Source: Candidatus Rokuibacteriota bacterium
Lineage (GTDB): Bacteria; Methylomirabilota; Methylomirabilia; Rokubacteriales; CSP1-6
Length of the DNA: 64,000 bases
NCBI GenBank assembly: GCA_003220685.1
Contig: QHTE01000048.1
Location: 95,029-159,028 of the forward strand
Reading direction: 5' to 3'
A program made the translations under genes and the position numbers. The notes beneath the pieces are model-generated. The model worked only from the letters and a program-made list of their open reading frames with translations. It was not told where the DNA came from and searched no databases. This document shows positions 7,016 through 64,000 of this stretch, piece after piece (within the stretch, counting starts at the first letter, position 1; each line of letters begins with the position of its first letter).

Positions 7016-7022
7016 GCGAGCC

Positions 7023-23873: not shown

Positions 23874-24626
23874 TCAGAGCGGTCGGGGCGCGACCCGGAT
23901 CCCGTCTTCGACGGAGAGGTCGACGCGCAGGACCGCGCCGACCTGATCGCGGCCGCCCCAGTCCGTGACGGGCGCGCCCGCGTAGCAGGCGACCACGCCG
24001 CCCTGGCTGACGTCGGTCTGGACGTGCTGGTGGCCGAGCGCGAGGTAGTCCCAGCCCGTGTCGCGAATCTCGTCGGCGAAGATCGGCGACGAGCGATCCG
24101 GCCGCTGCCGCGCCTCGTAGAAGAAGCCGTGGGCCATCGCCAGGTGCCAGCGTCGGTCGTCGCGCCCGGGAATGTGCGCGAGCGGCTGGAACCCCGGCTC
24201 GTGCTCCTCCATCGCCCGGCCCCAGACGACGGCGTCGAGCTCGGGGAAGTCGACGACCTCGCCGTTCAGCCGGCGGATCACGCGGACGTGGCTGAGCCCG
24301 GCCGCGAGATCGTGGCGATCGTGGATCGCGTTCGTGTAGAGCGCATCGTGGTTCCCGGGCAGGATGACGACCGGCTGTCGGAGCCGCGCGAGCTCGGCGC
24401 GCACGAAGTCGATGGCCTCGTCGGACACGCGGTTGTGATCGAACAGGTCGCCGGCGATCAGCACGAGATCGGCGCGGTCGCTCAGCGCGCGATCGACGAT
24501 GCGCGACAGGACGCGCCGGACCCTCGCCTGGTGCGCGGCTTGCTGGCGCGCGTCGCCGTAGCCGTCGCTCTCGAGGTGGACGTCGGCGGTGTGCAGCACT
24601 CGCAAGGGGCGTCGAGAGGAGGACAT
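23874..24626 (-). CDS. metallophosphoesterase (calcineurin-like)
   Basis: 250 aa from [11 protein letters not shown]. Motifs 'HTADVHL', 'AGDLFD', 'GNHD', 'GHQH'. The start was chosen to leave room for the divergent gene at 24650. Confidence 0.8.
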
Positions 24627-37643: not shown

Positions 37644-38519
37644 CTAGAACGGCAGGTCGATCTGGTGCGCCCGGAAGAACGTCGCCACGGCCGCCGTCCA
37701 GAGCGGCGTCCCGGCGGCCGAGGGATAGACGCCGTGGCCGCGATTCTCGGGAAACGGCGGTAGCATCACGAAGTCGCCGCGCCCGCCAGCGGCGCGGAAG
37801 CTCTCGAACCAGAGCTTGGCCGCCGCCGGGCCGATGAACGCGTCGTTCTCCGCGTAGAACCACAAGACCGGGACCGCGACGTCCGGCGCGATCGACGCGA
37901 ACAGCCTGGCCACGGGATCCGGCGCGCAGGGCAGCCCCGGATGCGTGTCCGGGCGGCCGCCGCGACCGGGCGCGAACGCGAGCACGGCGACGAGACCGTC
38001 CGGGCGCTTCGACGCGGTGTAGATCGACGCGAACCCGCCCGAGCTCTGGCCGACGAGCAGCCAGTGCCGGCGATCGAGATCGGATTGGGTCTTCGCCCAC
38101 TCGATCGTCGCAAGGAGATCCAGCGCCGCGCCTTCCCCCGCGCGGCGGAAGTCCGGGCTCTTGCAGGTGCCGTACGAGTCGCCGAACGTGTCTCCGCCGC
38201 TGGCGCCGTAGCCGCGTCTCACCGGGACGACCACCGCGTAACCGCGCCTCACCCACTCGCGGATCGGGTTCAAGGCCCGAAACCGGCCGATCGTGCGATT
38301 CGCTTCCGGCGTGGTCGCGGTGCCGTGGCTCATCACGATCCACGGAAACGGTCCCCAGGCGCGCGGCCGGTAGGTCGTGACCACGATTGTCGCGTGCGCG
38401 GCCGGCACCGACACGCTGTGGATCTCCTCGCGGAGCGACGCGTCGATCGGATCGGCGGCGCGCGCGACCGAGACCGCGCACGCGCCGACCGCCAGCGCGA
38501 CGAGCAGGCCCTTGATCAC
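37644..38519 (-). CDS. secreted alpha/beta hydrolase (dienelactone hydrolase/prolyl-oligopeptidase-like)
   Basis: 291 aa from a GTG that overlaps the upstream stop (GTGA). Signal peptide 'VIKGLLVALAVGACAVSVARA'. Nucleophile elbow 'GQSSGG'. Confidence 0.75.
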   Translation of the reverse strand: MIKGLLVALAVGACAVSVARAADPIDASLREEIHSVSVPAAHATIVVTTYRPRAWGPFPWIVMSHGTATTPEANRTIGRFRALNPIREWVRRGYAVVVPVRRGYGASGGDTFGDSYGTCKSPDFRRAGEGAALDLLATIEWAKTQSDLDRRHWLLVGQSSGGFASIYTASKRPDGLVAVLAFAPGRGGRPDTHPGLPCAPDPVARLFASIAPDVAVPVLWFYAENDAFIGPAAAKLWFESFRAAGGRGDFVMLPPFPENRGHGVYPSAAGTPLWTAAVATFFRAHQIDLPF

Positions 38520-40786
38520 GTGTCGAGCGCCGCCCTGACCCTCGGCGCCGTCACCGGCAGGTGGCGCGCGGCGGCGTCGCCCACGGCGGCGGCCACGGCG
38601 TTCGCAACCGCGGCGCCGACACCCGACGTTCCGGCCTCTCCGGCGCCCTTGACGCCGAGAGGATTCGAGGGCGCGGCGGACTCGTGGACGAGCAGCTCGA
38701 CCGCGGGCACGCGCGCCGCGGTCGGGATCGCGTAGTCCATGAAGGTGCCGGTGAGGAGCTGGCCGCTCGCGTCGTAGACGAGCTCTTCGAGCGTGGCGTG
38801 GCCGATGCCCTGGACGACCGCGCCTACCAGCTGGCCTTCGACGATCGTCGGATTGAGCGCGCGCCCCACGTCGCACAGGACGAAGTGCGTCTCGGGACGC
38901 ACCTCGCCGGTCGTCACGTCGACGCCCACCACGGAGAGGTGGACCCCGAACGAGCCGATGGCGCGCGTGGTTTCGTGACGCCACTCGGCCTCGAGCGGAC
39001 CGCCGGCGAGCGCGGCGATCTCGCGCAGCGAGCAGCGCCGGTCCGGCACGCCGCGCACGAAGGCGGCGCCGCCGTCGAGCTCGATGTCGGCCGCGCTCGC
39101 CTCGAAGTGTCGTGCCGCGAGCGCCGCGATCTGCTCGCGCAGTCGCGTCGACGCCTGGTACACCGCGGAGCCGGCCATCACGGCGGAGCGGCTCGCCGAG
39201 CTACCGACGCCGTGCGGCATCCAGCGCGTGTCGCCCAGGTGCACGGCGATGTCGCCCGGCGGCACCTGAAGGACCTCGGCGCAGACCTGGGCGAGCGTCG
39301 TCGGAAGCCCTTGACCGAGCGACGTGGAGCCCGCGGCCAGCTCGACACGCCCGTCGGCGGTCAAGCTGACCCGGGCGCTCTCGAACGGGCCGGTGCCCGA
39401 GGTCTCGATGACGGCCGCGAGACCGACCCCGTATCGCACGTCGCCGCCGGCGGCGTTGCGCGCGCGACACGCGGCGCGGCGCTCTTCGTAACGGCCGGCC
39501 TTCAGCGCGTGCTCGAAGATCGCGCCGAAGTCCTCACCCGCGAAGTCGGCGCTCCGTCCGGTGACCGCCCCTGCCACGGTGTCGACGGTGTGCGGCTCCT
39601 CGCCGGGCCGCGCGAGATTGCGGCGGCGGATCTCGGCCGGGTCGAGCCCCGAGCGCCGGGCGAGCAGATCGAGCACGCGCTCGCGCACGAACGTGCCCTC
39701 GTAGAAGCCCGGCGAGCGGACCGTGCCGGTCGGGGTCTTGGTGGTCATGACGCAGGAGACGCGGCAGCGATAGCTCGGCCAGCGGTACGGTCCCGGCAGG
39801 TACGAGGCCGTGAGCGCGGCGGCCCAGACGCCGTGCGTGCGGAGATGGCCGCCCATCACGTTGACGAGGACGGCGTCGAGCGCCAGCAGCCGCCCGCGCT
39901 CGTCGGCGGCCGCCGCCACCGACCACTGCTGCTCGCGCGAGTGATTGATCGAGAGAAAGTGCTCGCGTCGGTCCTCGACCCACTTGATCGGTCGGCCCAA
40001 GCGTCGCGCCAGGTGCGGGATCAGGAAGTCTTCGGGATAGAACTCGCCGCGCGCGCCGAACCCGCCGCCGACGTCCGACTCGGCGAAATCGATCCGCGCC
40101 TCGTCGACCCCGAGCATGCTCGCGAGCGTGCGGCGATTGAAGTAGGGAACCTTCGTCACGCCCCACACCGTCAGGCGCCCGCCGCCGGCCTCCCACTCGG
40201 CGAGCAGCCCACGCGGCTCCATGGGCGCCGCCGTCTGGCGCCCGATGGAGAGCCGGTCGCTCACGACGAACGCCGCGTCCCGCAGCGCGCCGTCGACGTC
40301 CCCGAGCGCGGTGGTCCACGAGTCGGCCACGTTGCCCTCGGGGAAGAGCGGCGGCCCGCCATCGCCCGGTTCGCCGGGGGTGACGAACGCCGAGAGCACG
40401 TCGTACTCGACGTCGACCTGCTCGCGCGCGTCGATAGCAGCGGCGCGATCGGTCGCGACGACGACCGCCACCGGCTGACCCGCGTAGCGGACCGTGTCGC
40501 CGGCCAGCGGCGGCTGGAGATAGGCCGCATGCGCCGGCTTGCCGGCCTGCCGAAGCGGAATCGTCGGCACGCCCGCGAGGTCGGCGGCTGTCAGGAGGGC
40601 CAGCACGCCCGGGCGGGCGAGGGCGCCCCGCCCGTCGATGCGGCGCAGGCGCGCGTGAGCGTGGGGGCTGCGCACGATGACCGCGTGCGCCATGCCCGGC
40701 CGGACCAGGTCGTCCACGTACCGTCCGCCGCCGACGAGCAGGCGCGGATCCTCGAGTCGCTTGATCGGGAGGCCGATGAACCTCAC
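38516..40786 (-). CDS. xanthine dehydrogenase/CoxL family molybdopterin-binding large subunit
   Basis: 756 aa. 'IKRLEDPRLLVGGGRYVDD' N-terminus, 'GGGFGARG', 'GQG..T' and 'GVKGAGEAGT' motifs. No adjacent 2Fe-2S or FAD subunit genes. Confidence 0.9.
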   Translation of the reverse strand: MRFIGLPIKRLEDPRLLVGGGRYVDDLVRPGMAHAVIVRSPHAHARLRRIDGRGALARPGVLALLTAADLAGVPTIPLRQAGKPAHAAYLQPPLAGDTVRYAGQPVAVVVATDRAAAIDAREQVDVEYDVLSAFVTPGEPGDGGPPLFPEGNVADSWTTALGDVDGALRDAAFVVSDRLSIGRQTAAPMEPRGLLAEWEAGGGRLTVWGVTKVPYFNRRTLASMLGVDEARIDFAESDVGGGFGARGEFYPEDFLIPHLARRLGRPIKWVEDRREHFLSINHSREQQWSVAAAADERGRLLALDAVLVNVMGGHLRTHGVWAAALTASYLPGPYRWPSYRCRVSCVMTTKTPTGTVRSPGFYEGTFVRERVLDLLARRSGLDPAEIRRRNLARPGEEPHTVDTVAGAVTGRSADFAGEDFGAIFEHALKAGRYEERRAACRARNAAGGDVRYGVGLAAVIETSGTGPFESARVSLTADGRVELAAGSTSLGQGLPTTLAQVCAEVLQVPPGDIAVHLGDTRWMPHGVGSSASRSAVMAGSAVYQASTRLREQIAALAARHFEASAADIELDGGAAFVRGVPDRRCSLREIAALAGGPLEAEWRHETTRAIGSFGVHLSVVGVDVTTGEVRPETHFVLCDVGRALNPTIVEGQLVGAVVQGIGHATLEELVYDASGQLLTGTFMDYAIPTAARVPAVELLVHESAAPSNPLGVKGAGEAGTSGVGAAVANAVAAAVGDAAARHLPVTAPRVRAALDT

Positions 40787-40812
40787 TGGAAGAGGGATGG
40801 TACCATCCGCTC

Positions 40813-41096
40813 GTGCAATGGGGGCGCACCGTCACCGTGATCGGCTGCCACGTCGGCGGCGAGGACAACCACGTGATCGTCGGCGGCGTGCTGCCGCCGC
40901 CGGGCGCCACGATGTTCGAGAAGAAGCGCTACCTCGAGACGGAGCGATCGCCGCCGAGGTCGTCGTGGGCGGACGGCCGGGCATCGTCCCCACGATCGCC
41001 GGGCAGGCGTGGATCACCGGCGTCTTCCAGCACGGCTCCAACCCGTCCGATCCCTTCCGCCACGGCTTCACGTTGCCCGACATGTGGTTCGCCTGA
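40813..41096 (+). pseudogene. proline racemase/4-hydroxyproline epimerase family remnant (internal deletion plus frameshift)
   Basis: N-terminus 'TVTVIGCHVGGEDNHVIVGGVLPPPGATMFEKKRYLETE' matches the family 'IDSHTGGEPTR.V.GG' pattern. From about 40945 another frame reads 'AIAAEVVVGGRPGIVPTIAGQAWITGV...DPFRHGF..*' (the family C-terminus), with its stop at 41094-41096. Confidence 0.55.
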
Positions 41097-47326: not shown

Positions 47327-47701
47327 ATGATCGAATACCGGCTCGACGCCGCGCGCTCGATCGTGTACGTGAGGCCCAAGTCAGCGCTCGAGCGCGACGA
47401 CTTCGTGAAGCTGGCGCGAGCAGTCGATCCGCACATCGAAGCGACGGGCGGGCTCGCCGGGCTCATCATCGAGATCTCCGCGTTTCCCGGCTGGGACAGC
47501 CTCGGCGCGATGGCGGCCCACTTCCGCTTCGTACGAGACCATCACGAGCGCATCCGCAAGGTCGCCGTCGTGACCGACTCCCCGCTGGGTGCCGTCGCGG
47601 AACGTCTGGCATCCCACTTCGTGTCGGCGGAGATCAGGCATTTTTCGGCTGGACAGGTCGAGGCCGCCAAGCAGTGGATCCTGGCTTCAGCGCGACCCTA
47701 G
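47327..47701 (+). CDS. STAS/SpoIIAA-like (DUF3478-type) protein
   Basis: 124 aa. 'LIIEISAFPGWDSLGAMAAHFRFVRDHHERIRKVAVVTDS' matches the SpoIIAA-like family as I remember it. Confidence 0.7.
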   Translation: MIEYRLDAARSIVYVRPKSALERDDFVKLARAVDPHIEATGGLAGLIIEISAFPGWDSLGAMAAHFRFVRDHHERIRKVAVVTDSPLGAVAERLASHFVSAEIRHFSAGQVEAAKQWILASARP

Positions 47702-49399
47702 GTCTCGCTCGGCGTCCATCAGAAGGTCGTCGAACGACGACGGCACCTCGACAGTGCGCCCGACGACGCCGGGGCTGTAGCCCTGGAGCCAGTAGCTGTT
47801 GGTCGGGTGCCCGCCGCCCGCGACGACGACGATGAAGTTGTCGGGGCTGGCGGTGATCGGCCAGGGATCGAGCGCGATGCTTTCACGCACGACCTTGCTC
47901 GCGTCGATCTCGAGCCACGCCGGGCAGCCGGCGCGGCGTAGCTGCTCGGTCGGGATGCGCGAGTGCTCCCACAGGAACTCGCGGATCGCCGCCTTCGTCC
48001 AGCCGAGGCCGGCCATCGTGTTCGCCACGACGCCGGGGAGCATCAGGATGCCCGGCGTGCCGTGCTCGTAGCCCGCGAGGCCGGGCATGTTGGGCACGCG
48101 CATGAAGTCGGCCATGCGGTACATGCCCTGCAGCGCGTCTTCTTCCGGGGTTTCCTTCTTCGCGCCGCGCCGGCGGATGTTCGTGGCGCCGTTGGCGAAC
48201 GCGAGCGAGATCGAATGCTGACTCCGCGCGAAGGCGTGGCGCTCGGTCCCGTGCGGCGCCCAGCCCGGCGGAAGATTCGCTTCGTCTTCCGCGAAGACGA
48301 CGTTCGTGTACCGCACGCCGCCGTAGTTGGCCATGGTGCCGATGCCGGGCAGGGCGCCGCCGACGTTCTGCTGCAGGAGCCGCAGCGCGCGGCCGATGCT
48401 GGCGCCCGCGGGCCGCTGCGGGTCCGGGCCGAGGCAGCCGAAGCCGGCGTTCAGCCGGATCTGGGCGCCGATGGGGCCGTTGACGATCACCACCGGGAAG
48501 GCGCTGCCCGACGCGGCCTGCAGCTGCGCGCTCCCTGACGCCGGATCGAGGAACGCGTCGACCGCGGCCACGAGCACCGGCAGATACTCGGGCCGCCCGC
48601 CCGACATCGCCAACGCGATCGCGCAGGTCTCGATCGTGGTCACGCCGCCGCGGGGCGGGAAGATGCCGATCCGTCGTGAGCGCGGCTGCGTCGCGCCGCG
48701 AAGGATCCAGTCCACTCGCTCGCGCGTCGGGGGCCAGAGCGGAAGCCCGTCGCCCCAGCGATTCGCGAGCATCAGGTTGTTCGCTCGCGCGAAGGCCTCG
48801 TCCATGCTCGCGCCCCGAACCTTGATCGGCGGCGCCTCGGCCGCGCCGGCGCCGCCGAGGGTCGAGCGCCAGCGCGTGAGCCCGTCGTAGAACTCGCGCT
48901 TGCGCGCCTCGACCGGGGAGATATCGCTCCCGGGCAGGAACATCTCGATGGGGAAGGTGACCATCGCCGCGTCGGGCGCCAGGCCGAGCCCGGCCACCGC
49001 GTTCGTCATGACCCCGACGAAATCCGCGCGGGTCAGGGTGACGGTTGGAATTCCCAGCGCTTCGAGCCTAGCGGCCGCCCGGCCGCATGCAGTGGCGCAG
49101 GACCCTCAGGCCGCGTTGCCGATGATGACGGCGTCGACCCCACTCTGCTTGACCTGCGCGGCCGTCTCCTCCGAGCCGATCACCGCGTTGCCCTGCGGGA
49201 AGGCGTCGAGCGGCAGCACCTCGATGCCCGCGAAGTCGGCCTCGAGCAGCTGTTTCAGGAGCGGCAGCATGCGGTACGCCTGCCACTGATCGTTGCTGAC
49301 GAAGCCGATGCGCTTGCCCTCGAGGGCGGCGACGCGCGGGGCAAATGGCTGCTTCACCTCGATCGCGCCTGACGGATCGTGGAACTCGAGCGTGACCAT
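47687..49399 (-). CDS. selenoprotein: GrdB C-terminal-like 'UGSC' Sec domain (UGA-Sec at 49106-49108) fused to a ~380-aa domain of unknown function
   Basis: ORFs 49106..49399 and 47687..49009 are in one frame with no stop in the 96 nt between them. Read-through gives 'GVDAVIIGNAA-U-GSCATACGRAAARLEALGIPTV', parallel to this window's GrdB 'GVDAVILTST-U-GTSTRCGAAITRELERAGLPTV'. GGGGGA RBS precedes ATG 49399. Confidence 0.65.
49071..49086 (-). promoter_or_regulatory. candidate SECIS-like stem-loop downstream of the UGSC UGA
   Basis: Sense strand GCGGCC-GGGC-GGCCGC begins 20 nt 3' of the UGA at 49106-49108. Its position fits a bacterial SECIS, but the structure was not modelled. Confidence 0.3.
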
Positions 49400-49417: not shown

Positions 49418-50566
49418 CTACCGCTTGATCTTCAGGAGCTTCGCCGCCGTCTCCCCCAGCATCGCCCGCCGATCGGCATCGCTGAAGCCCGGCGCTTTCA
49501 GGATGTGGTCGATCGACTTGTCCTGCCACGGGATCGGATGGTCGGTGCCGACGACGAGCTGGCTCACGCCGACTTCGGCGGCCAGATGACGCAGCGCCTC
49601 GGAGGTGAAAACCAGGGTGTCGTAGTACATCGTCTTCAGATACTCGGTCGGCTTCTTCTTCAGCTTGATGCCCGTGTCCATGTCGGGCGCGACGCGCAGG
49701 CTGTTGTCCGAGCGCGCGGCGTACGACGGCAGGTAGCCGCCGCCGTGGGCCGAGCAGATCTTGAGGCCGGGGAACCGATCGAGCGTGCCCTCGAAGATCA
49801 GGTGCGAGAGCGCGATCGTGGTGTCCAGCGGGTTGCCGATCGTGTTCGCCAGCCAGCCGTTGCCCTTGAGCCGCGTGGCCAGGTCCGGCGTGCTCTGCGG
49901 ATGGATGAAGATCAGGACGCCGAGCTGCTCGGCCTTGGCCCAGAACGGATGGAACTTCGGGTCGGAGAACTCATCGCCGGCGACGCTCGCGCCGACGGCG
50001 GCGCCGCGCAGGCCGAGCTTCTTCACGCCCTCCTCGAGCTGCTGCACCGCGAGGTCCGGGAACTGCAGGGCGACGGAGGCGAACGCGACGAAGCGATCCG
50101 GATACTTTCCGCAGAACTCGGCGAGCCGCTCGTTCTGGATCTTGACCACCTGGGTCGCGAGGTCGCGCTCGGCCCGATACCACGCCGGGTTGATGCTGAG
50201 CGCTTCCATGTCGATGCCCTGGGCGTCCATCTCGCGGATGCGCCGGGGGCCGACCTCGTTGATCCCGGGCCCACGGTGGTCTTGCACCTTCAGCCCCAGC
50301 AGCGCGTACGCCTCGGGGATCACGCAATGGGCGTGCACGTCGATCGTCTTCACGCGGCGTCCGCCGACCACGACTTCGCGGCGCCGACCGGTCATCGCCG
50401 TCGCCGGGCTCGACTGGCCCGATTTCGGGCGCGCTTTGCCCCGCGTGGCGGCGGGCGCCTTGGCCCGAGCTCGGGCGCGCGCCGCACCGAGCAGCTCGCA
50501 CTCGATGAAGGCGATGTCAGCCATGACGCCGGCGGTACTGCTGTCGAACGCTGTCCGCGTGCTCAT
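49418..50566 (-). CDS. amidohydrolase-2 family protein (ACMSD-like metal-dependent hydrolase/decarboxylase)
   Basis: 'KTIDVHAHCV', 'FIHP', 'ICSAHGGG' and 'LVVGTDHP' match the PF04909-type barrel. The N-terminal ~55 aa are low-complexity, so the true start may be the internal ATG near 50395. Confidence 0.8.
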   Translation of the reverse strand: MSTRTAFDSSTAGVMADIAFIECELLGAARARARAKAPAATRGKARPKSGQSSPATAMTGRRREVVVGGRRVKTIDVHAHCVIPEAYALLGLKVQDHRGPGINEVGPRRIREMDAQGIDMEALSINPAWYRAERDLATQVVKIQNERLAEFCGKYPDRFVAFASVALQFPDLAVQQLEEGVKKLGLRGAAVGASVAGDEFSDPKFHPFWAKAEQLGVLIFIHPQSTPDLATRLKGNGWLANTIGNPLDTTIALSHLIFEGTLDRFPGLKICSAHGGGYLPSYAARSDNSLRVAPDMDTGIKLKKKPTEYLKTMYYDTLVFTSEALRHLAAEVGVSQLVVGTDHPIPWQDKSIDHILKAPGFSDADRRAMLGETAAKLLKIKR

Positions 50567-50622
50567 CGCTATCCCCCCAGGAGCAGTTTCGGCTGCAAGC
50601 GCGGCCTATCATAGTGCATCGC

Positions 50623-51921
50623 TCAGCCCTCGCGTCGTCCCGAGTGCGGCGGCATGGCGAGCTCCGCCGGCTTGCGCCGGCAGACGTCGACGGCGGTCAC
50701 CGCCAGCACGCGCGTGACCCTTTCCATCTCGCTCACGAGCACGCACGCGTCGTCCTCGTCGGCGTTGCCGCGAATCGTCGCGGGGCCGTAGAGCAGACAC
50801 GGGATGCCGGCCTTCCAGAGGTGGCACGTGTCGTCGGCGCTGTACGAATGCGGCAGCACGGCGCCGATGGCCTTCGGCTCCTGGCCCGTCACGGCGCGAT
50901 AGCTCCGCGCCACCGCCTGCACGATTGGCGCGTCGGTCGGCATGTCGAACGGATCCATGACGAGGCGCCGGCGCCCCTTGAAGCTGGCCGGCGGCGGAAT
51001 CTCGATCTCGTAGCGGAGATCGGGATCGAGCGCCGCGACCGGATCGAGCGCGCGGCGGATGTCGGCGACGATGCCGTCGACGGTTTGCCCCGGCACGAAG
51101 TGAACGTCGACCAGGATCGTGCACAGATCGGGCACGTACGGCGGCTCGACGAGCACGTAGTCCCGGCCGCGTCCGCCGAGGACGCTGCCGACGTTGAGCC
51201 GCGGGAACGCGGGGAGGTCGGGCCGCGGCGTGTGGCGAAACTCGACGTGCTCGAGCGCGCGGACGATGGCCGTCATCTTCTGCACCGCGTTCACCGTGCC
51301 CTCGAGGCGTCCGATGTGTCCGGTTACTCCGTAGGCATGGATCGCCATGTGCGCGATGCCCGAGTGCACCGTGACGAGGTTGTCGGCGCCGAACGGCTCG
51401 GCGACCACCGCGGCGTCGGTGCGCAGGCCGCTCTGCATCAGGTAGTGCGTGCCCTCGCCGCCTTGCGTCTCGCCCGCGACGCACGCGACGACGAGATCGC
51501 CGGCGCGCCGGACGCCGGAGCGCCGAACGGCCTCGGCGGCCATGATGATGCTGGCCAGGCCGCCCTTCATGTTCTGCACGCCGTGGCCGTACAGGCGGTC
51601 GCCCTCGAGGCTCGGCGTCCACGGGTCTCGCCTCCACCGGCGGGTGAGGGCGTTGATATCCGTGTGGCCGTTGAGCATGAGGCTCGCCCCGCCGCCGGTA
51701 CCCCGCAAGGTGGCGATCGTCTGCAAGCGCCCGGGCTCGATCTCTTGCAGGTCGACGTCGTAGCCGCGGCGGCGGAAGAAATCCTCCAGGAACCGGGCAA
51801 CGGGCGTCTCTTCGGTCTTGAAGCTCGGGATGCGAATGAGATCGCTGGCGAGATCGATCAGCTCGCGCCGACCGACGCGCGCCAGCACGGCGTGCATCGG
51901 CGCATCCATCGCCTGACTCAC
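50623..51921 (-). CDS. M20 family metallopeptidase/deacylase (ArgE/DapE-like)
   Basis: 432 aa. 'LMLNGHTDI', 'GHGVQNMKGG' and 'VAGETQGGEG' are M20 motifs. Confidence 0.85.
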   Translation of the reverse strand: MSQAMDAPMHAVLARVGRRELIDLASDLIRIPSFKTEETPVARFLEDFFRRRGYDVDLQEIEPGRLQTIATLRGTGGGASLMLNGHTDINALTRRWRRDPWTPSLEGDRLYGHGVQNMKGGLASIIMAAEAVRRSGVRRAGDLVVACVAGETQGGEGTHYLMQSGLRTDAAVVAEPFGADNLVTVHSGIAHMAIHAYGVTGHIGRLEGTVNAVQKMTAIVRALEHVEFRHTPRPDLPAFPRLNVGSVLGGRGRDYVLVEPPYVPDLCTILVDVHFVPGQTVDGIVADIRRALDPVAALDPDLRYEIEIPPPASFKGRRRLVMDPFDMPTDAPIVQAVARSYRAVTGQEPKAIGAVLPHSYSADDTCHLWKAGIPCLLYGPATIRGNADEDDACVLVSEMERVTRVLAVTAVDVCRRKPAELAMPPHSGRREG

Positions 51922-51934
51922 CGGCCAGCGCCGA

Positions 51935-53185
51935 TCAAACGAAGGTGAGCGGCTCGACGTGGGCTTCGCCGCGCGCGAAGCGGCCGATGTCGAGCGGGCC
52001 GGCGTCCATCGTCACGGCGTGGCCGTGGGCGAGCATCTCGGCCATCAGCTGCCCCGCAATCGGGCCGTGCATGAAGCCGTGGCCGCTGAAGCCCGCGATG
52101 ACGTGCAGGCCCGTGACGCCGGGCACGGCGCTGACGATGCCGGTCTGGTCCGGCGTCATCTCGTAGAGGCCGGCCCACGCGCGCATCAGCTCGGCGTCGG
52201 CGAGGGCCGGCGCGCGGTGAATCGCGCGCTCGATCAGCGCGGGCTCGAGGCTCCGGTCGATCTCGGTGCTGAAGCCGTCGGGCTCGTCGCGCCGTCCGTG
52301 GCCGAGCAGGAGCCCGGGCCCCTCGCGGCGCAACGAGAAGTTCGTGTGCGGGTCGATGATGAACGGCGTGGCGGCCGGGATGCGTGAGGCCGGGAACGGT
52401 GCGGTCATGAACTTGTGGCGCCGGTGGGGGCTCACGGGAATGTCGACGCCGGCGAGCCGGCCGACCACGCCCGACCAGGCGCCGGTCGCGATGACGGTGG
52501 CGCGCGCCTCGAAGGTCCCGGCCGCGGTGGTCACGCCGCGCACGCTGTCGCCGTCCCGCAAGAAGCCGTGCACCTCGTGCTGCTGCTTGATCGTCACGCC
52601 GAGATCCCGCGCGCGCGCCGCGATCGCGGTCGCGCAGAGATACGGGTCGGCGTAGCCGTCGCGCGGCGTATAGGTGGCCCCGAGCAGATCGTCGGTGTTG
52701 AGATAGGGGCAAAGCGCGCGCGTCGCCCCGGCATCGAGCAGCTCGACGCGCACGCCGAGGCTCCGCTGGAGCCCGACGCTGCGTCGCGCGACCGCCAGCT
52801 CCGGCTCGCTCCCGATCAGGATCAGGTAGCCGTGCTGACGGAAGTTGGGATCGACGCCGAACTCGTCCTTGAAGCGCTCGTAGGTGACGATGCTGTGCGT
52901 CGTCAGCTCGATGCCCAGCCGGTTCGCGTACTGGTGGCGGATGCCGCCGCTCGCGAGCGCCGTCGAGCCGGAGCAGACGGTGTCGCGCTCGAGCACGGTC
53001 ACCGGGCCCACGCCCAGGCGGGCCAGATGGTACGCGGTGCTCACGCCCATGATGCCGGCGCCGACGATCACGACTTCCGCGGTGTGCGCCACGCCGCCAC
53101 CATACGGCAAGCGCGAGCCGGGCTCAACCCGATCGGCTTGAACCGGCGCGGCAAGACGGCGATCATGGCCCGGCGAGGAGGGCAC
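51935..53185 (-). CDS. FAD-dependent oxidoreductase (DAO family; sarcosine oxidase beta / D-amino-acid dehydrogenase-like)
   Basis: Rossmann motif 'VVIVGAGIMGVSTAYHLA' and C-terminal 'GFSGHGFMHGP'. The start is uncertain: ATG 53185 lies 5 nt from the divergent amidase, and GTG 53092 is the alternative. Confidence 0.8.
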   Translation of the reverse strand: MPSSPGHDRRLAAPVQADRVEPGSRLPYGGGVAHTAEVVIVGAGIMGVSTAYHLARLGVGPVTVLERDTVCSGSTALASGGIRHQYANRLGIELTTHSIVTYERFKDEFGVDPNFRQHGYLILIGSEPELAVARRSVGLQRSLGVRVELLDAGATRALCPYLNTDDLLGATYTPRDGYADPYLCATAIAARARDLGVTIKQQHEVHGFLRDGDSVRGVTTAAGTFEARATVIATGAWSGVVGRLAGVDIPVSPHRRHKFMTAPFPASRIPAATPFIIDPHTNFSLRREGPGLLLGHGRRDEPDGFSTEIDRSLEPALIERAIHRAPALADAELMRAWAGLYEMTPDQTGIVSAVPGVTGLHVIAGFSGHGFMHGPIAGQLMAEMLAHGHAVTMDAGPLDIGRFARGEAHVEPLTFV

Positions 53186-53190
53186 CCGAG

Positions 53191-54588
53191 ATGGCGACGA
53201 TCGATCCTGTCTGGGCCACGGTATCGGAGCTGTCCCGCGCGTTCGAGGCGCGTACGCTTTCCCCGGTCGATGCCGTCGGGGCGCTGCTCGAGCGGATCCG
53301 CCGGCGCGATCCGGCGCTGCACGCGTTCATCGCAGTCTACGACGCCGACGCGCGGCTCGCGGCCGAGGCCGCCGACAAGGCCATTCGATCGGGGCATCGC
53401 ATCGGACCGCTTCACGGCGTCCCGATCGCGCTGAAGGACCTCGTCGACCTCGAGGGTCGCGTCACCACCGGCGGGTCGAAGGTGTGGGCCGAGCGCGTGT
53501 CGCCGACGACCGCCACGTTGGCGCAGCGGCTCATGGCCGCCGGGATGATCGTGCTCGGCAAGACGCACACGGTCGAGTTCGCCATGGGGAGCTGGGGGAC
53601 CAACACGCACATGGGCACACCGCGCAACCCGTGGGACCTCGCGGTGCATCGCACGCCGGGCGGCTCGTCCAGCGGCTCGGGGGTCGCGGTCTCCGCCGGT
53701 CTGGCGCCCGTCGCGATCGGCACCGATACGGGCGGCTCCGTCAGGATTCCCGCGGCGTGGTGCGGCATCGTCGGCCTGAAGGTGACGGCCGGCCGGATCA
53801 GCACGTACGGCGTCCTGCCGCTCAGCTCGACGCTCGATACGCCCGGCCCGCTGGCGCGCTCGGTCGAGGACGCGGCGCTGATCTACCGGGCGCTCAGCGG
53901 GCCCGACCCGCGAGATCCGCAGACGCTCGCGTGGACTCCGGTCGATCCGCTACCCGCGTTGCGCCGCGGCGCCGCGGGATTGCGTCTCGCCGTCTTGCCC
54001 GACGCCGAGCGCACGGGTGTCGAGAAGGAAGTGCTGGCCGCGTACGAGGCCGCGGTCGGCGCGCTCGCCGGGCTCGGAGCCCAGATCGTCCGCGTCGAGT
54101 TTCCCCGCCGCCTGAGCGACTACGCCAAGGCGACGGGCACGATCATCGGTGCCGAGGGCTATCGCTTCGTCGGTCACCTGGTCGACGACCCGGCGCTGCC
54201 GACGGACCCGCACGTGCGACCGCGCATCCAGCTCGGTAAAGCCATCTCGGCGCGCGACTACTTGCTGGCGCTGGCGCAGCGCGAAGAGGACAGGCGCGAG
54301 TTCGCCGCGGCGCTCGGCGGCGTCGACGCGATCCTGACGCCGACCGCGCAGACCGCGGCGATTCCCATCGATCGCGCCGACCAGTCGGGCACGGCAGCCC
54401 ACTTCACGCGGCCGGGCAACTATCTCGGCCTCTGCGGTCTGGCGATCCCCAGCGGCTTTTCGACGGACGGCCTGCCGCTCTCGCTCCAGATTCTCTGCCA
54501 CGCCGGAGAGGAAGCGACGGCGCTGCGCATCGGCTGGGCCTACGAGCAGGCCACGAGCTGGAAGGCGCGCCGGCCGCCGGAGCCGTGA
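53191..54588 (+). CDS. amidase (amidase-signature family, GatA-like)
   Basis: 465 aa. 'GVPIALKD' and 'GGSSSGSGVAVSAGLAPVAIGTDTGGSVRIPA' give the Ser-cisSer-Lys signature. Confidence 0.9.
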   Translation: MATIDPVWATVSELSRAFEARTLSPVDAVGALLERIRRRDPALHAFIAVYDADARLAAEAADKAIRSGHRIGPLHGVPIALKDLVDLEGRVTTGGSKVWAERVSPTTATLAQRLMAAGMIVLGKTHTVEFAMGSWGTNTHMGTPRNPWDLAVHRTPGGSSSGSGVAVSAGLAPVAIGTDTGGSVRIPAAWCGIVGLKVTAGRISTYGVLPLSSTLDTPGPLARSVEDAALIYRALSGPDPRDPQTLAWTPVDPLPALRRGAAGLRLAVLPDAERTGVEKEVLAAYEAAVGALAGLGAQIVRVEFPRRLSDYAKATGTIIGAEGYRFVGHLVDDPALPTDPHVRPRIQLGKAISARDYLLALAQREEDRREFAAALGGVDAILTPTAQTAAIPIDRADQSGTAAHFTRPGNYLGLCGLAIPSGFSTDGLPLSLQILCHAGEEATALRIGWAYEQATSWKARRPPEP

Positions 54589-58081: not shown

Positions 58082-58549
58082 TCAGGCCGTCGCGCCGGCG
58101 CGCCGCGCTTCGCGCAGGCCCGCGAGGATCGCCTCGCGGTCGAGGCTCATCTCCATCAGCGCGACCTGCGCCTCGTACACGTCCGCCGGCACCTGGTCGC
58201 GTACTTCCGGCTCGAACACGTGAAACACGGGGAGCCCCAACGGGACTCCGGCCAACGGGCCCGCGTAGGAGGGATCGCCGGCGACGACGGTCTGGGCGAG
58301 CGTCTGCGTGCTCTCGGCATCGGGCGTGCCGAGAAGGACCACCACGCCATTGCCGTGCTCGTCAGCGACTCGCTTCACCGCCGCCTGATCCTCCAGGCCC
58401 ATGGCGCCCGCCGCGGTTCAGACGTAGCAGGCGGTCAGGGTCAGCACCACCTCGGCGCCCGCGCGACTGGCGCACTCCGCCACCGCGGGGCCCGGCACGC
58501 CGTCGCGCTCACCGAGCGCGATGACCTTCTTGCCTCGAAGTTCCATCAT
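58082..58549 (-). CDS. grdA: glycine/sarcosine/betaine reductase complex selenoprotein A (UGA-Sec at 58418-58420)
   Basis: ORFs 58418..58669 and 58082..58402 are in frame. The joined product '[80 protein letters not shown]' matches GrdA, including the CxxU motif. AAAGGAG RBS. 155 aa. Confidence 0.85.
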
Positions 58550-58712
58550 GTGGCTCCTTTCTAATGGGGGACCCGCGAGGGGTCCCCCATACCCCTCCAC
58601 GCTCGCCAGCGCCCCGGCGGAGCCGTGGCGCTGGGCCTTTCTAGATGGGGGACCTAGACGGGTCCCCATACCCCTCCACGCTCGCCAGCGCCCCGGCGGA
58701 GCCGTGGCGCTG
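58550..58712 (-). repeat. tandem direct repeat (84 + 79 nt) of a two-hairpin element between grdC and grdA
   Basis: Units are 58550-58633 and 58634-58712, with a ~49-nt core that looks identical on reading. Each unit has the hairpin CAGCGCC-N13-GGCGCTG plus a second hairpin: ATGGGGGACCC-CTCGC-GGGTCCCCCAT (perfect 11 bp) in the grdA-proximal unit, bulged in the other. Each unit ends in TAGAAAGG. Confidence 0.8.
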
Positions 58713-58730: not shown

Positions 58731-60203
58731 TCACGTGCTGCCGGCGTTGCGCTCCAGGACGAGGGAGAGCCCGTCCGGCAGCTGCGTCATGCGTCCCAGG
58801 AACAGACTACCCTTGCCCGCGAACATCGTGCGCGTGAGGCGGCCCTCGGTGAGCGCGCGTCGCGCGTGACCGAGATACGGGATCGCCGAGGCGATGTGGC
58901 CCTGGGTCGGCGAGAAGCCCGGCATGCCCCGCGCGCGGACGAAGTCGTCGATGCTCTCGCGCGCGATCAGCTTCTCGACCACGGCCAGGCTCGCCAGGGT
59001 GCGGTAGTTGTTGAGCGGGACGTTGCCGCTCCCCGCGGGCTCGGTCGCCTCGGGGTTGTGTAGCTCGAGCGAGAACCGGTCCACGTCGAGCAACGTCAGT
59101 CCCACGCGGCCGAGCGGCTCGCTGTAGAGCGCCTTCATGACCGCGAGCGGCGCCGAGCCCGAGGCGACCTCGTGGCGGCCGATCGCGTCGAGCCGCAAGG
59201 TGGGCGAGACGCCGTCGTCGCGCGAGACGTGCGCGGCGAAGCCGGCGAGCACGTCCTCGACGATTGGCATCGCGTGCTTGACGTGCCCCTGGAATTTCAT
59301 CCCGAGCTTCGCCAGCGAGCCACCCGCCAGGACGACCACGTCGTCGTGCAGGCCGCTGCGGACCAGGGCCCCGGCCAGCATCAACGCGTGCATCGGCCCG
59401 CTGCAGAACGCCTTGACATCGCTGCCGGTCGCGCGGCCGCAGCCTGCCCATTCGGCCACCGCCTTGGCGACGTTGCCGCCGCCGCGCTGGTAGCGATCGC
59501 CCACCGCCTCCTCGCCGCAATTGATGACGTAGCGGACGTCGGCGGACGCGATCGCCCCGGGTCGCGCGAGCAGGTGACGCAGCGCCAGCGCCGCCGTTGC
59601 CTTGCACGCGAGATTCTCCAGCAACACCTGGCCGGTGAGCGTGTCGTCCTCGTCGTGCCCGGGCAGCATGGCGCCGAGGAGCCGGCCGTCCGCGCCTACG
59701 ATTCGCAGCGCGCGGTGCCGCTCGACGCGCTCCTCGAGCACGGCCGCGGTGACGCCGGGCGGTACGGTCGGGCTGCCGGCGGCGCGACCGATGACCGGGT
59801 GCGCGTCGAGCGCGCTTCGCGCGCGGTCGGCCAGCTCGCGGTCGAGCCCGAGCAGCTGGAAGCCGTCGCAGGCGGCCAACAAGCCGAAAAACTCGTCCTC
59901 GGGCATGATCTCGCCGTCGGGACCGAAGCGCGCCGCCCTCTCGATCGGATGACGATGCCAGGGAGTCGGCCGCGCCGCGAGCTCGTCCACCCCCATGTTG
60001 CCGATGAACACCTGGTTCGGCGCGTAGGCCTGCGCGACGTCCCAGGCGCGCAGATGCGGTCGCAGGAAGTCGATCGGGTCGTGCACCTCGCGCAGGACCC
60101 GCAACGGCTTGGAGCCGAGCCGGACGAGGCTCGGCACGTGCGCGAGCACGAGCGAGACCGCGCGAATGACGGGCATCCCGTCCGACGTCACGCGAGGCAT
60201 CAT
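58731..60203 (-). CDS. grdC: glycine/sarcosine/betaine reductase complex component C, beta subunit-like (thiolase-like fold)
   Basis: About 490 aa. '[24 protein letters not shown]' resembles the GrdC N-terminus as I remember it. '[15 protein letters not shown]' is a thiolase-like Cys region. ATGATG at 60198-60203 overlaps the araC stop; ATG 60176 is an alternative start. Confidence 0.8.
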
Positions 60204-61064: not shown

Positions 61065-61685
61065 TTGGTAGGCACTGGAGACAAGAGTACGACTACGGAG
61101 CAACTCGTCGCGTTCCTTCTCTTCGCGGTGGTGGCCGCGGTCACGCCCGGCCCCAGCAACATCATGGTGACGGCCGCCGGGGCGAACGCCGGCCTCCTCA
61201 AAGGGCTTCCGTGCCTCTTGGGTGTCGCGACCGGCATGGGGCTCATGATGTTTCTGGTGCCGCTGGGGCTGGGGAGCGTCGTCCTCGGCCATCCCCTCGT
61301 GCTGAAGACGCTCAACTGGGGCGGCGCGGCGTTCCTGCTCTGGCTCGCGTGGAGGATCGCGACCTCGATCGGTCTCGAAACGACTCGAGAGCCCCAGCCC
61401 GTCGGCTATTTCAAGGCTGCGGCTTTTCAGTGGGTGAACCCGAAAGCGTGGCTCGTGAGCGCGAGCGCGGCGGGAACGTTTCTCAGCGCGGGGGCGGGGA
61501 GCCCGGTCGTGCAGTCCGTCTATCTCGGCGGGCTGTTCTTCCTCGCGGCGCTGCCGAGCTGCTTCGTGTGGCTGGCGTTCGGCGCCACGGTCCAGCGCAT
61601 GCTCCGGAGCCCGCGCCGGCTCCGGGCGTTCAACGTCGCGATGGGGGTGCTCCTCGCCGTCTCGATCGTCCTCATCGCCGCGTAG
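61065..61685 (+). CDS. LysE/RhtB family amino-acid exporter
   Basis: 206 aa from TTG. 'LLFAVVAAVTPGPSNI' is the LysE N-terminal motif, with about 6 TM segments. Divergent from araC. Confidence 0.8.
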   Translation: MVGTGDKSTTTEQLVAFLLFAVVAAVTPGPSNIMVTAAGANAGLLKGLPCLLGVATGMGLMMFLVPLGLGSVVLGHPLVLKTLNWGGAAFLLWLAWRIATSIGLETTREPQPVGYFKAAAFQWVNPKAWLVSASAAGTFLSAGAGSPVVQSVYLGGLFFLAALPSCFVWLAFGATVQRMLRSPRRLRAFNVAMGVLLAVSIVLIAA

Positions 61686-62379
61686 ACTCGCGGCCCCCCT
61701 CGCGAGTCTCCACCGGGCTCTGACCGGCGCTCGTCGCCGTCTCGGGCGCCAGCGGAATGACACCGCCCGGCTCGCCGGCCAGGATCCAGTCGATGAGCAG
61801 GCGATAGCGGTCCGTCGGCACGGCGCCAACCAGCGAGAGCTTCTCGTTGAGGACGACCGTCGGCAGGCCGGACACGCCGAACCACGCGGCACCCTCGGCG
61901 CAGTCCCGCAGCACGGCCTCGTACGCCTCGCCGGCGTAGTCGGCCTCGAAGCGCGCCGGATCGAGCGCGGTCTCGCGGAGAAGGGTGCGCAGCACCTCGG
62001 GGCGCGAGATGTCGAGGTTGTCGCGAAAATGCGCGGTGAAGAGGCGCTCGTGAAACCGTTCGAACGCGGCTTCGCCCTGGAGCTCGGCGCACTTGGCGGC
62101 TGTCAGCGCCGGGACGCTCGAGGACGGCAGCGGGGTGTCGATCGCCGGCGGGACGAAGAACGCGCGCGGCTCCTCGGCGCCGACGCGCTGCCGGCCCTCG
62201 CGCGTCTTCTGCGTGACGCGCCGGTCAGGCTGCTCGCCGGGAATCAGCGGGAAGGTCCGCCAGTGGAGCCTGACGCGCTCGCCGTAGGCCCGCTGGATCT
62301 CGCGAAGCCGCACCGCGGCGTTGTAGCACCAGGGGCACAGGTAGTCGGAGAAGACGTCGAGCCGGACGGGTGCCGTCAT
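61672..62379 (-). CDS. DsbA/FrnE-like thioredoxin-fold oxidoreductase (CPWC active site)
   Basis: 235 aa. 'LDVFSDYLCPWCYNA' N-terminal motif. The ATG overlaps the grdB stop (ATGA at 62376-62379). Confidence 0.8.
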   Translation of the reverse strand: MTAPVRLDVFSDYLCPWCYNAAVRLREIQRAYGERVRLHWRTFPLIPGEQPDRRVTQKTREGRQRVGAEEPRAFFVPPAIDTPLPSSSVPALTAAKCAELQGEAAFERFHERLFTAHFRDNLDISRPEVLRTLLRETALDPARFEADYAGEAYEAVLRDCAEGAAWFGVSGLPTVVLNEKLSLVGAVPTDRYRLLIDWILAGEPGGVIPLAPETATSAGQSPVETREGGRESTRR

Positions 62380-63695
62380 TCGCGCCCGAACACCGTGGGT
62401 TTCGCGACCTCGGTCCGGAGCGCTTGCAGCGCCTGCTCGACGATGCGCCGCCGCAGCGCCTTCTCGTCCTCGGGCGAGAGGTCCGCGCTGCCGAGCGGAT
62501 GGATGATGCCCGCGGCGGACACGATGCGATTGGCGCCGACCATTACCGCGACCGGCGTCATGGTCGAGACCTGCACCGTCGGCAGCCCCGCCCGCTCGAG
62601 CTCTCGCGTGATCGCTGCGCCGCAGCGAGTGCTGGTGCCTCAGGTGGAGGTGAGGATGACGGCGTCGACGCCGGCCGCGCGCAGCTTTTCCGCGATCTCG
62701 CGGCCCATGCGCGCGCTCTGGGCGAGCGTGGTCGCGACGCCGACCGTTGAGTAGATGGTTTCATGCAGCTTGCCGATGGCGCCGCTCTGCTCCAGCTCGC
62801 GGGCGACGTCGACCGGGACCAGACGGTGCGGATCCTGCTTCACCCAGGTCGTGTCGTAGCCGCGATGAGGATTGTCGTACTGGGCCGCGTCGAGGCTCGA
62901 CTTGCCCTCGATGCTGTAGGCGCCGTAGCGCGTCGCGTTCAGCGCCTCGATGCCGTCGGGGTTGCCGCGCGGGACCAGGCCGCCGTCGGTGACGAGCGCG
63001 ATCGTCGCGCCGGCGAGCGTCTTGACGAGCCGCGGCGCGGCGACGGGCGGAAACGCCGGTCTCGGGACCTCGGTCGTGAAGGCGCGGCCGGCCAGCTTGT
63101 CGAGCAGCATCGCGACGGCGCGGTCGGCGGCGTTGGCGCCGGCGACGATATTGCGCGTCACACCGCGGGCGAAATATCCGTGAGCTGCCGGGGCGCCGAT
63201 CGCCTCGCCGCGGGCGAGCTTCAGCCCGAGCGCGACGAGCCGCTGCACTTCCGGGAGCATGCGCGTGGCCTCCGCGCCGGTCTGGACGACGTAGACCTGA
63301 CGGCGGTAGAGCTCGACGCCGGGATTCTCGGCGTGCATGCCGGTGACGGTCGGAATCTTCAGCTCGGCCTGCGCGGCGGCGCAGAGCGCGCCGCACGCGA
63401 CGCCGTAGCGGCCCGCCAGGAACGCGGGCCCCGCGACCAGCAAATCGGGGCGCGCCGCGGCGACCAGCGCGACCAGCTCGGTGGTCGCGCGCTCGGCCTG
63501 CTCGGCGGCGTAGTTGTCGCCACAGATCACCGTCGCGACGACCGTGCCCGCGTCGCCGAGCGCCTGCTGAACGGCCCGCGCGGCGCCGATGGCGCCGTCG
63601 ACCACCTGCGGCCCGACGCCGGCTTTGTCCTCGCCGCCGAGCTGGCCGAAGAACTGGTTGAGGTAGCAGACAACCCGCAAGGTCTCAGCTGCCAT
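62376..63695 (-). CDS. grdB: glycine/sarcosine/betaine reductase selenoprotein B-type subunit (UGA-Sec at 62640-62642)
   Basis: ORFs 62640..63698 and 62376..62576 are in frame with no intervening stop. 'LRVVCYLNQFFGQLGGEDKAG' at the N-terminus and '..AVILTST-U-GTSTRCGA..' match GrdB. About 439 aa. ATG 63695 overlaps the upstream stop (TGATG); GTG 63698 is an alternative. Confidence 0.85.
62612..62628 (-). promoter_or_regulatory. candidate SECIS-like stem-loop downstream of the grdB UGA
   Basis: Sense strand TCGCTGC-GGC-GCAGCGA (7-bp stem) begins 12 nt 3' of the UGA at 62640-62642. Not modelled energetically. Confidence 0.3.
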
Positions 63696-64000
63696 CACCG
63701 CACCTCCGCCATCACTCTGGTCGCCCCGACCTGCTCGATCGCGCCGCAGAGCCCGCCGTAGGTGGCGCGCGTCTCGCCCAGGAGCTTCGACGCGAGATCG
63801 TCGGCGCCGATCACGCGGTCCATCGCCGGCAAGGTGATCGGCTCCTGGCTGCTCCCGACGTTCACCAGCGCGTCGACTCCCGGAAAATCGAAGAGCAGCA
63901 TGCCCTCCGCGCTACCGTCGGTCGACATGTCCTCGACGACGGCCGTCGTCTTGACGCCGAGGGCTTCGCACTGCGCGGCCGCCTGCGCCATGTCGACGTG
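63695..64000 (-). CDS. grdE: glycine/sarcosine/betaine reductase component B proprotein (GrdE/GrdG/GrdI-type), C-terminal part; continues beyond the window
   Basis: The frame is open to the window end. '..QCEALGVKTTAVVEDMSTDG...VNVGSSQEPITLPAMDRVIG' resembles the GrdE-family C-terminal region as I remember it ('..CKALEEAGIKTV...GNANEVITLPPMDKVIG'). Its stop overlaps the grdB start. Confidence 0.65.
   Translation of the reverse strand, partial: HVDMAQAAAQCEALGVKTTAVVEDMSTDGSAEGMLLFDFPGVDALVNVGSSQEPITLPAMDRVIGADDLASKLLGETRATYGGLCGAIEQVGATRVMAEVR

Follow-up and report, generated by a model that had tools for sequence, protein, structure and literature searches.

Several selenoproteins B of the glycine-reductase type have been described together with a partner subunit: GrdB with GrdE, the sarcosine-specific GrdF with GrdG, GrdH with GrdI in the betaine reductase of Peptoclostridium acidaminophilum / Acetoanaerobium sticklandii, and FarB with FarE in the fluoroacetate reductase of Cloacibacillus porcorum (PMC10838667). 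In C. sticklandii, selenocysteine (Sec) is residue 350 of the 436 residues of GrdB and residue 352 of the 440 residues of GrdH (PMC3091704). The pyruvoyl group of GrdE, formed from Cys242 in C. difficile, has a debated role (PMC9908766). Since no Schiff base is required for their substrates, GrdI and FarE are not proproteins and do without the cleavage cysteines (PMC10838667). Here we describe a locus of this family in a 64,000-nucleotide stretch of contig QHTE01000048.1 of Candidatus Rokuibacteriota bacterium; this whole stretch is called the window. Near its end, on the minus strand, two adjacent reading frames separated by a TGA codon very probably form one gene for the Sec-bearing subunit of a glycine-reductase-type protein B of Rokubacteria, judging from its sequence and that of its relatives. 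The features of this gene are:

62376 to 63695, minus strand: complete gene for a selenoprotein B subunit of the GrdB/GrdF/GrdH family (translation, TIGR01918, PF07355, tblastn)
62640 to 62642, minus strand: in-frame UGA read as Sec, in the motif LTST-U-GTSTRCGA (column conservation, substitution pattern of the tail)
62612 to 62628, minus strand: selenocysteine insertion sequence (SECIS) hairpin with a 7-bp stem and a GGC triloop (minimum-free-energy and centroid folds, covariation, Rfam)

The first open reading frame (ORF) runs over 62640–63698 when read from its first possible start codon, GTG 63698, and ends in ...AAGVDAVILTST at the TGA of 62640–62642. Its overlap with the TGA of the gene upstream makes the ATG at 63695–63693 the likelier start; from this ATG, 351 codons precede the internal TGA, the last of them encoding VDAVILTST. 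Beyond the TGA the frame continues as GTSTRCGAAITRELERAGLPTVQV...HPLG...FGRE (in a longer form, GTSTRCGAAITRELERAGLPTVQVSTMTPVAVMVGANRIV...HPLG...FGRE) for 87 more codons, with no other stop before the TGA at 62376–62378. The predicted tail after residue 352 contains the stretches GTSTRCGAAITR... and GTSTRCGAAITRELER... The read-through product has 439 residues with Sec as residue 352, and tblastn matches in relatives span residues 1–440. An earlier note on this DNA had taken the two frames, split at the UGA, for one gene of about 439 residues coding for a selenoprotein-B-type subunit, and both parts of that proposal hold: the frame is open to 62376, and the family models align from end to end. 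TIGR01918 (glycine/betaine/sarcosine/D-proline family reductase selenoprotein B) scores 516.1 bits (cut-off 65.45), with residues 8–437 aligned to model positions 1–430/431, and PF07355 (GRDB) scores 451.9 bits for the read-through protein. The NCBI pipeline already gives the family name to a homolog from Methylomirabilota (P0026). A sequence search of the PDB returned no solved homolog.

The TGA is conserved. In a scan covering one genome for each GTDB species, 43 loci (labelled L001 onwards below) were found, 37 of them readable at the Sec region. All 37 have TGA in the same column, within ST-U-GT(S/C)(T/S)R(C/S)G, and a frame that stays open for about 87 codons more; the mismatch in the Sec column that the earlier note had named as fatal to its proposal was thus seen in none of them. 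About 25 of these loci are from metagenome-assembled genomes (MAGs) of Rokubacteria/Methylomirabilota, at 74–99% identity, the closest being L001, a Candidatus Rokuibacteriota MAG from grassland soil (99%). Others, at 42–50% identity, belong to Binatia, Syntrophobacteraceae, Anaerolineales, Halanaerobiaceae, Clostridia and Synergistaceae. Three nanopore assemblies contain frameshifts in the region, and motif scans still recovered the TGA motif there. When the 87 codons after the UGA are compared with those of the window, the differences at codon positions 1, 2 and 3 number, for example, 2/2/25, 2/1/26 and 5/2/24. This third-position bias means that the tail is a translated, constrained sequence, and the 87 codons are under purifying selection.

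These results bear on the simplest alternative, that the TGA is a true stop, leaving a truncated protein of 351 residues and either an independent small ORF or a decaying pseudogene. Every database gene call ends at this TGA, and GTG 62576 could open an ORF of 66 residues. Among the best database proteins, 120 of 120 have 346–359 residues, so that homologs ending at this point, the other outcome that the earlier note had regarded as damaging, do exist as protein entries; their DNA continues in frame and is conserved, and the ends at 346–359 residues are a gene-caller artefact. Against a true stop stand the conservation of the TGA across phyla, the bias of the tail substitutions to third positions and the alignment of the family hidden Markov model through the site to position 430/431. 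Moreover, no part of the tail is more conserved than the 21 codons between the TGA and GTG 62576 (GTSTRCGAAITRELERAGLPT), in which the catalytic motif of the family is located. A true stop is for these reasons barely credible. Reassignment of TGA to Trp or Gly, which would place an ordinary amino acid at the site, has a probability close to nil: TGA closes 23 of the 38 confident ORFs of the window, this gene included, and as it is the commonest ordinary stop there, codon reassignment is excluded; the column is, besides, the known Sec column of the family (PMC3091704). The gene is a real selenoprotein gene, mis-split by gene callers. A HMMER search of 1.84 billion representatives (E ≤ 1e-30) gives at least 306 clusters at 50% identity, most of which end at the Sec codon. 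Some of the proteins found (P0136, P0140, P0160 and P0222) are 774–798 residues long and end at the Sec codon, with the GrdB-like part carboxy-terminal after about 430 extra residues; they look like fusions of a partner to selenoprotein B.

The hairpin downstream of the UGA was described in the earlier note as a 7-bp palindrome at 62612–62628, and it is found there, with seven Watson-Crick pairs, the outermost being U62628-A62612. It is conserved with covariation, and resembles SECIS_4. Eleven nucleotides separate the UGA from the first base of the stem. In E. coli fdhF, a minimal stem-loop of 17 nucleotides located 11 nucleotides after the UGA suffices. On this strand of the window, a perfect hairpin of at least 7 bp beginning 8–20 nucleotides downstream occurs at 1.6% of positions and after 10 of 657 TGA triplets (about 1.5%). 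It is conservation that gives the hairpin its weight: hairpin, TGA and downstream frame are kept together in 37 related loci, and all relatives examined, among them the Firmicutes loci above the Rfam threshold, keep the spacing between UGA and hairpin. When the helix is aligned over 29 distinct sequences, 96% of cells are paired, compared with 16–70% if the 3' partner strand is slid by one to three columns. Two pairs show compensatory changes in this set: seven sequences have U-A for C-G, and two have A-U for U-A, the latter through a Cys-to-Ser codon change balanced by a synonymous change in an Ala codon.

The SECIS prediction that the earlier note had suggested as a check gave a divided answer. 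In a search restricted to the site, Rfam SECIS_4 (RF01990) matches 62611–62632 with 20.3 bits (E = 0.008–0.016). Its 6-bp stem and GGN triloop fall in the same register as the window hairpin, which does not have the outer 2-bp helix of the model. When the core sequences are compared (GCACUCGCUGCGGCGCAGCGAU in the window, GUACUCGUUGCGGUGCAACGAU in SECIS_4), 19 of 22 positions agree; of the three that differ, two make up one compensated stem pair. Five Firmicutes loci score 58–62 bits at the same site, against a gathering score of 38; two of these five were scored on the NCBIfam models, where L026 passes as GrdB and L036 as GrdH.

Some results weigh against Sec insertion at this site and against a standard selenoprotein B. 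The SECIS_4 score of the window lies below the gathering score, and a search of the whole window at the Rfam gathering threshold gave no SECIS_4 match. The folding energy of the 45 nucleotides after the UGA is ordinary for DNA of 72% G+C (z = 0.13 relative to shuffled sequences), hence folding energy alone proves nothing, and it was rejected as evidence for a SECIS element. Genes for tRNA-Sec, selA, selB and selD are found neither in the window nor in the fetched Rokubacteria loci; the tRNA-Sec search covered the window and 38 loci. In the Clostridiales locus L036 the betaine-type grdH has a tRNA-Sec gene (19487–19577, Rfam 72.6 bits) at a distance of about 8 kb, a linkage that is seen in no Rokubacteria locus. 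Finally, the redox motif is not UxxCxxC: the window has U-GT-S-TR-C (UxxSxxC), with Ser for the first Cys. The same Ser is present in all Rokubacteria 'a' copies, in Syntrophobacteraceae and in Anaerolineales, while the Binatia proteins have neither Cys. FarB also deviates from UxxCxxC (PMC10838667), which makes the motif a variable rather than an absolute feature of the family. Sec decoding of the UGA at 62640–62642 is what we infer from the conservation described above. In favour of it, a 2026 review (PMC13188914) describes a Methylomirabilota MAG with 63 predicted selenoprotein genes, a number reported as the new maximum among bacteria.

The selenoprotein gene lies in a cluster, the other features of which are:

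63695 to 64000, minus strand: partner subunit of the GrdE/GrdG/GrdI family, carboxy-terminal 101 codons, cut by the window end (PF09338, Gly_reductase)
61672 to 62379, minus strand: DsbA-like thioredoxin-fold gene with a CPWC motif and no signal peptide (PF01323, 86 bits)
58731 to 60203, minus strand: GrdC, protein C beta subunit (NF040746, 584.7 bits, cut-off 450)
58082 to 58549, minus strand: GrdA, selenoprotein A, 155 residues, with an in-frame UGA at 58418–58420 in the motif CYV-U-TAAGA (NF040748, PF04723)

The order on the minus strand is partner, grdB-like gene and DsbA-like gene, followed by grdC and grdA, and this arrangement is conserved in Rokubacteria. A LysE-type exporter gene, on the opposite strand, and a gene for an AraC-type regulator lie within the cluster, the exporter between its two halves. 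The grdB-like gene is translationally coupled on both sides: the stop codon of the partner, TGA 63695–63697, overlaps its ATG, and its own stop overlaps the ATG of the DsbA-like gene (ATGA). A GrdE/GrdG/GrdI-family gene is thus adjacent, and GrdC and the selenoprotein GrdA are encoded 2–4 kb away, the company expected of a member of this family.

The 101 partner codons in the window are 100% identical to the end of a 420-residue protein of L001, and comparisons of the full-length partner use that protein. Its scores are 226 bits on the GrdG model (cut-off 780) and 172.7 bits on the FarE model (NF053623, cut-off 675), and it is 29% identical to the GrdI of L036. The GrdB-type partners of L026 and L030 contain SGN-C-VxAC, with the Cys at residue 240 and 242, respectively; Cys242 of C. 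difficile GrdE, from which the pyruvoyl group is formed, falls in that column (PMC9908766). At this position the Rokubacteria partner has Met (RGF-M-GRS), together with a three-residue deletion, and only three Cys occur along its whole length; in the GrdI of L036 the position is taken by Phe. Without the Asn-Cys self-cleavage site, a Cys-derived pyruvoyl group cannot form, and the partner, to judge from the alignment, is probably not a self-cleaving proprotein. The earlier note had wanted the partner compared with GrdE, GrdG and GrdI, the family to which it belongs (PF09338); its word proprotein probably does not fit, the cleavage Cys being replaced by Met.

Upstream of the partner and on the same strand, L001 contains a gene for a D-2-hydroxyacid dehydrogenase, glyoxylate-reductase-like (3326–4261). 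It is also present in L002, L004, L006, L007, L009, L011, L016, L024, L025 and L041, at about 10 nucleotides from the partner gene in most of these eleven loci, and would fall just past the window end. It is located upstream only in these eleven closest relatives, not in more distant Rokubacteria. Some Rokubacteria have a second pair of selenoprotein B and partner (L011 3481–5960, L013 1432–3976, L022 3956–6507, L023 6919–9526, L025 2057–4539 and L035 15292–17983), 41–46% identical to the first, with the motif UGTCNRC and a partner without the cleavage Cys. L035 has this second pair in line with grdC-grdA; the window and its closest relatives, L001 and L002, have no such pair.

The class of substrate was approached through the NCBIfam equivalog models and through a tree. 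The window protein stays below the cut-off of each model: 471.9 bits for GrdB (TIGR01917, cut-off 602.2), 492.1 for sarcosine GrdF (NF040794, cut-off 800), 456.2 for betaine GrdH (NF040795, cut-off 775) and 91.7 for D-proline PrdB (TIGR04483, cut-off 300), the last matching the carboxy-terminal half only, with a length of 439 residues against about 240. The controls worked, L026 passing GrdB at 649.3 bits and L036 passing GrdH at 781.9 bits, and assignment of a substrate by equivalogs failed for the window protein. In a neighbour-joining tree with 100 bootstraps, the Rokubacteria form a clade of their own (100/100), and the groups of GrdH (87/100) and of GrdB (77/100) both exclude them. Of those family clusters that were placed in the tree, most belong to none of the characterised groups. 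Assignment by the tree failed too: the clade is solid, while sister-group proposals have 0–2% support. The earlier note had held that the substrate class could not be told from the sequence, and the missed cut-offs agree with this; the phylogenetic placement it had in mind yields a separate clade and no substrate class, and its label GrdB stands for the family, not for a glycine-specific enzyme, as no equivalog cut-off is reached.

With no pyruvoyl site in the partner, and with the protein outside the GrdB, GrdF, GrdH and PrdB classes, the substrate is more likely one that needs no Schiff base. Betaine, or another acetate with a good leaving group, would accordingly be more likely than glycine or sarcosine. 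A canonical glycine-specific GrdB, serving Stickland-type glycine reduction or the reductive glycine pathway, is an improbable reading. The family match and the nearby GrdA and GrdC speak for it, Joint Genome Institute (JGI) pipelines call many close homologs 'glycine reductase', and identity to the bona fide GrdB of L026 (46–47%) is slightly above that to GrdH (42–43%). Set against this are the score of 471.9 on TIGR01917, which control L026 passes at 649, a partner that does not have the Asn-Cys cleavage site of the glycine and sarcosine enzymes, a cluster without GrdD, thioredoxin or thioredoxin reductase, and a protein that does not group with L026 and L030.

A betaine reductase, in which GrdH and a GrdI-like partner would convert glycine betaine to trimethylamine and acetate in Rokubacteria, is unlikely as well, if somewhat less so. 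Its partner would be unprocessed like GrdI, as the sequence alignment indicates (PMC10838667), and Sec at 352 of 439 residues is close to the Sec at 352 of 440 in C. sticklandii GrdH (PMC3091704). The score on NF040795 is nevertheless the lowest of the GrdB, GrdF and GrdH three (456 against 775, with control L036 passing at 782), the GrdH clade is without Rokubacteria in 87 of 100 bootstraps, the partner shares only 29% identity with the GrdI of L036, and no betaine transporter is located in the cluster.

Neighbouring genes were tried as further hints. The AraC regulator matches through its helix-turn-helix domain alone and is a weak hint; the LysE exporter, the D-2-hydroxyacid dehydrogenase and genes of the hydantoinase/xanthine-dehydrogenase type are also weak, and a deltaproteobacterial locus gave no useful hint to the substrate. 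The nearest relative outside Rokubacteria (P0123, 53% identical; L044 729–9781) adjoins genes for hydantoinase A/B and a xanthine-dehydrogenase-type molybdoenzyme, and in L002 hydantoinase-like genes are located about 8 kb downstream. Such neighbours may be a possible hint of catabolism of N-heterocycles or of creatinine-type compounds.

Wherever the DNA directly after grdB is available in Rokubacteria (27 loci), the next gene is the DsbA-like one, whose product looks cytoplasmic; no other lineage has it at this place. Its xPWC motif opens with a TGA codon in 15 of 25 relatives (L002, L003, L006–L008, L011–L013, L015, L018, L019, L021–L023 and L039) and with TGC or TGT in the other 10; the window has TGC. 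This exchange of Sec and Cys at the redox motif marks the DsbA-like protein as a putative active oxidoreductase. It is similar to form 1 of the DsbA-like selenoproteins (PF01323, UxxC; PMC13188914), in that the gene after grdB belongs to PF01323 and has TGA in most of these relatives, and differs from it in that the window gene is the Cys form (CPWC); a fixed place after a grdB-family gene is not mentioned in that review. The cluster contains no gene for thioredoxin or thioredoxin reductase. The DsbA-like protein is a candidate redox partner, which would probably re-reduce oxidised GrdA instead of thioredoxin. Alternatively, it may guard the Sec of a selenoprotein B that lacks the first protective Cys.

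For GrdC, the start codon may be at 60203, 60200 or 60176. The GrdA gene is split by its UGA, and the protein scores 194 bits on NF040748 (cut-off 130), in addition to matching PF04723. Alignments of GrdA obtained with tblastn cross the UGA at 89–97% identity in relatives. An E-value search around this UGA found no Rfam SECIS family. The grdC-grdA pair is conserved in Rokubacteria loci. The spacer between the two genes contains a perfect direct repeat of 49 nucleotides (58585–58633 and 58664–58712, a period of 79 nucleotides) that has no further copy in the window and for which the number expected by chance is zero.

GrdD reportedly carries the acetyl-thioester Cys and forms acetyl phosphate, as Kohlstock et al. 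are said to have found in 2001. When the GrdD of L026 was used in tblastn, matches were obtained only in the Firmicutes loci L026 and L036. In L026, GrdC and GrdD are fused in one ORF of 841 residues (5956–8481).

By analogy with characterised members of the family, the following steps may be proposed. SelB with Sec-tRNA would bind the hairpin and insert Sec352. The selenolate would then attack, within the B complex, C2 of the bound X-CH2-COO- substrate, expelling X and forming a carboxymethyl selenoether, from which the carboxymethyl group would move to the Sec of GrdA. Reductive release onto GrdC would give an acetyl thioester, and a thiol/selenol oxidoreductase, in this case probably the DsbA-like protein rather than thioredoxin, would return oxidised GrdA to its reduced form.

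When the locus is compared with betaine reductase, the selenoproteins are alike in their size of about 440 residues, in Sec near 352 and in ST-U-GT, both partners are without the self-cleavage cysteines, and sharing of GrdA and GrdC would be expected. However, the window protein has 42–43% identity to the GrdH of L036 and is outside the GrdH clade, it has UxxSxxC rather than UxxCxxC, neither GrdD nor a thioredoxin system accompanies it, and the host is a high-G+C soil member of Rokubacteria and not a fermenting Firmicute. With GrdB/GrdE and GrdF/GrdG, the locus shares the family model, the Sec column, the SECIS_4 type, the distance from the UGA and the pairing with a GrdE-family gene, while the score is below both equivalog cut-offs; where GrdE has Asn-Cys...Cys, the window partner has Met and the three-residue deletion, and no pyruvoyl group is expected. 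FarB/FarE is the precedent for an unprocessed partner with an altered CxxC; its substrate is an acetate with a leaving group, requiring no Schiff base, and it borrows GrdA and GrdC (PMC10838667). The differences are the score on the FarE model (173 against 675), the one Cys of CxxC that the window protein keeps, and the lack of an adjacent farA transporter gene (an antiporter of the major facilitator superfamily) or farC radical S-adenosylmethionine gene in the window.

We tentatively propose that the Rokubacteria module may be a reductase for a substrate beyond glycine, sarcosine, betaine, D-proline and fluoroacetate, with a DsbA-like electron donor and an end other than acetyl phosphate; this is possible rather than probable. 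It would combine a UxxSxxC selenoprotein B, an unprocessed partner, a dedicated DsbA-like oxidoreductase and GrdA plus GrdC without GrdD, in soil hosts that do not ferment, a combination put forward with the same reserve. Several points weigh against the main reading, that of a glycine-reductase-type complex working by the steps outlined above, and against the view taken of its substrate. GrdD is not found in the 64-kb window, nor within 10 kb in any locus of Rokubacteria, Binatia, Syntrophobacteraceae or Anaerolineales, so the last step of the canonical mechanism is unsupported here, although a grdD gene could be located in another part of the genome. The tree does not resolve its deep branches, and for the Rokubacteria clade the proposed groupings with P0123, P0124 and P0127 reach 0–2% support. 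The step from no pyruvoyl group to a substrate other than glycine is based on a correlation over five characterised systems.

Elsewhere in the window, a candidate selenoprotein gene is located at 47687–49399 on the minus strand, with a TGA at 49106–49108. Its product begins with MVTLEF and reads ...SGVDAVIIGNAA-U-GSCATACGRAAARLEALGIPTV... across the TGA, after which the frame is open for 472 codons further. The G+C content at third codon positions is 0.92 in both parts, and the long carboxy-terminal part has no Pfam match. The NCBIfam model for UGSC-family (seleno)proteins crosses the TGA (residues 27–148) with 49 bits, below its cut-off of 125. The regions 22751–24265, 38519–40831 and 49421–54585 are rich in genes for the catabolism of amides and N-heterocycles, coding for an AtzD/TrzD ring-opening amidohydrolase, a xanthine-dehydrogenase-family molybdoenzyme, an amidohydrolase_2, an M20 peptidase, a DAO-type FAD oxidoreductase, an amidase and a 3-hydroxyanthranilate-dioxygenase-like cupin. 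A junction at 28587 turned out to lie between two ordinary adjacent genes.

The family, the recoding mechanism and the richness of Methylomirabilota in selenoproteins have already been documented, and non-pyruvoyl partners are known from GrdI and FarE. In the searched literature, no paper ties Rokubacteria to this enzyme or documents this cluster design, and nothing specific was found on glycine reductase or selenocysteine in Rokubacteria. Because the 120 nearest database entries are all cut off at the Sec codon, public protein sets for the whole clade lack both the catalytic residue and the 87 residues that follow it. The gene described here places selenium chemistry of the glycine-reductase type in Rokubacteria, a widespread uncultured soil lineage. 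The design of the cluster, without a pyruvoyl group, without GrdD and with its own DsbA-like Sec/Cys protein, hints at a substrate and an electron supply unlike those of the Stickland enzymes. If the substrate does lie beyond the five known ones, the Rokubacteria clade would be one example within reach from among a large number of unexplored reductases that act on C-X bonds.

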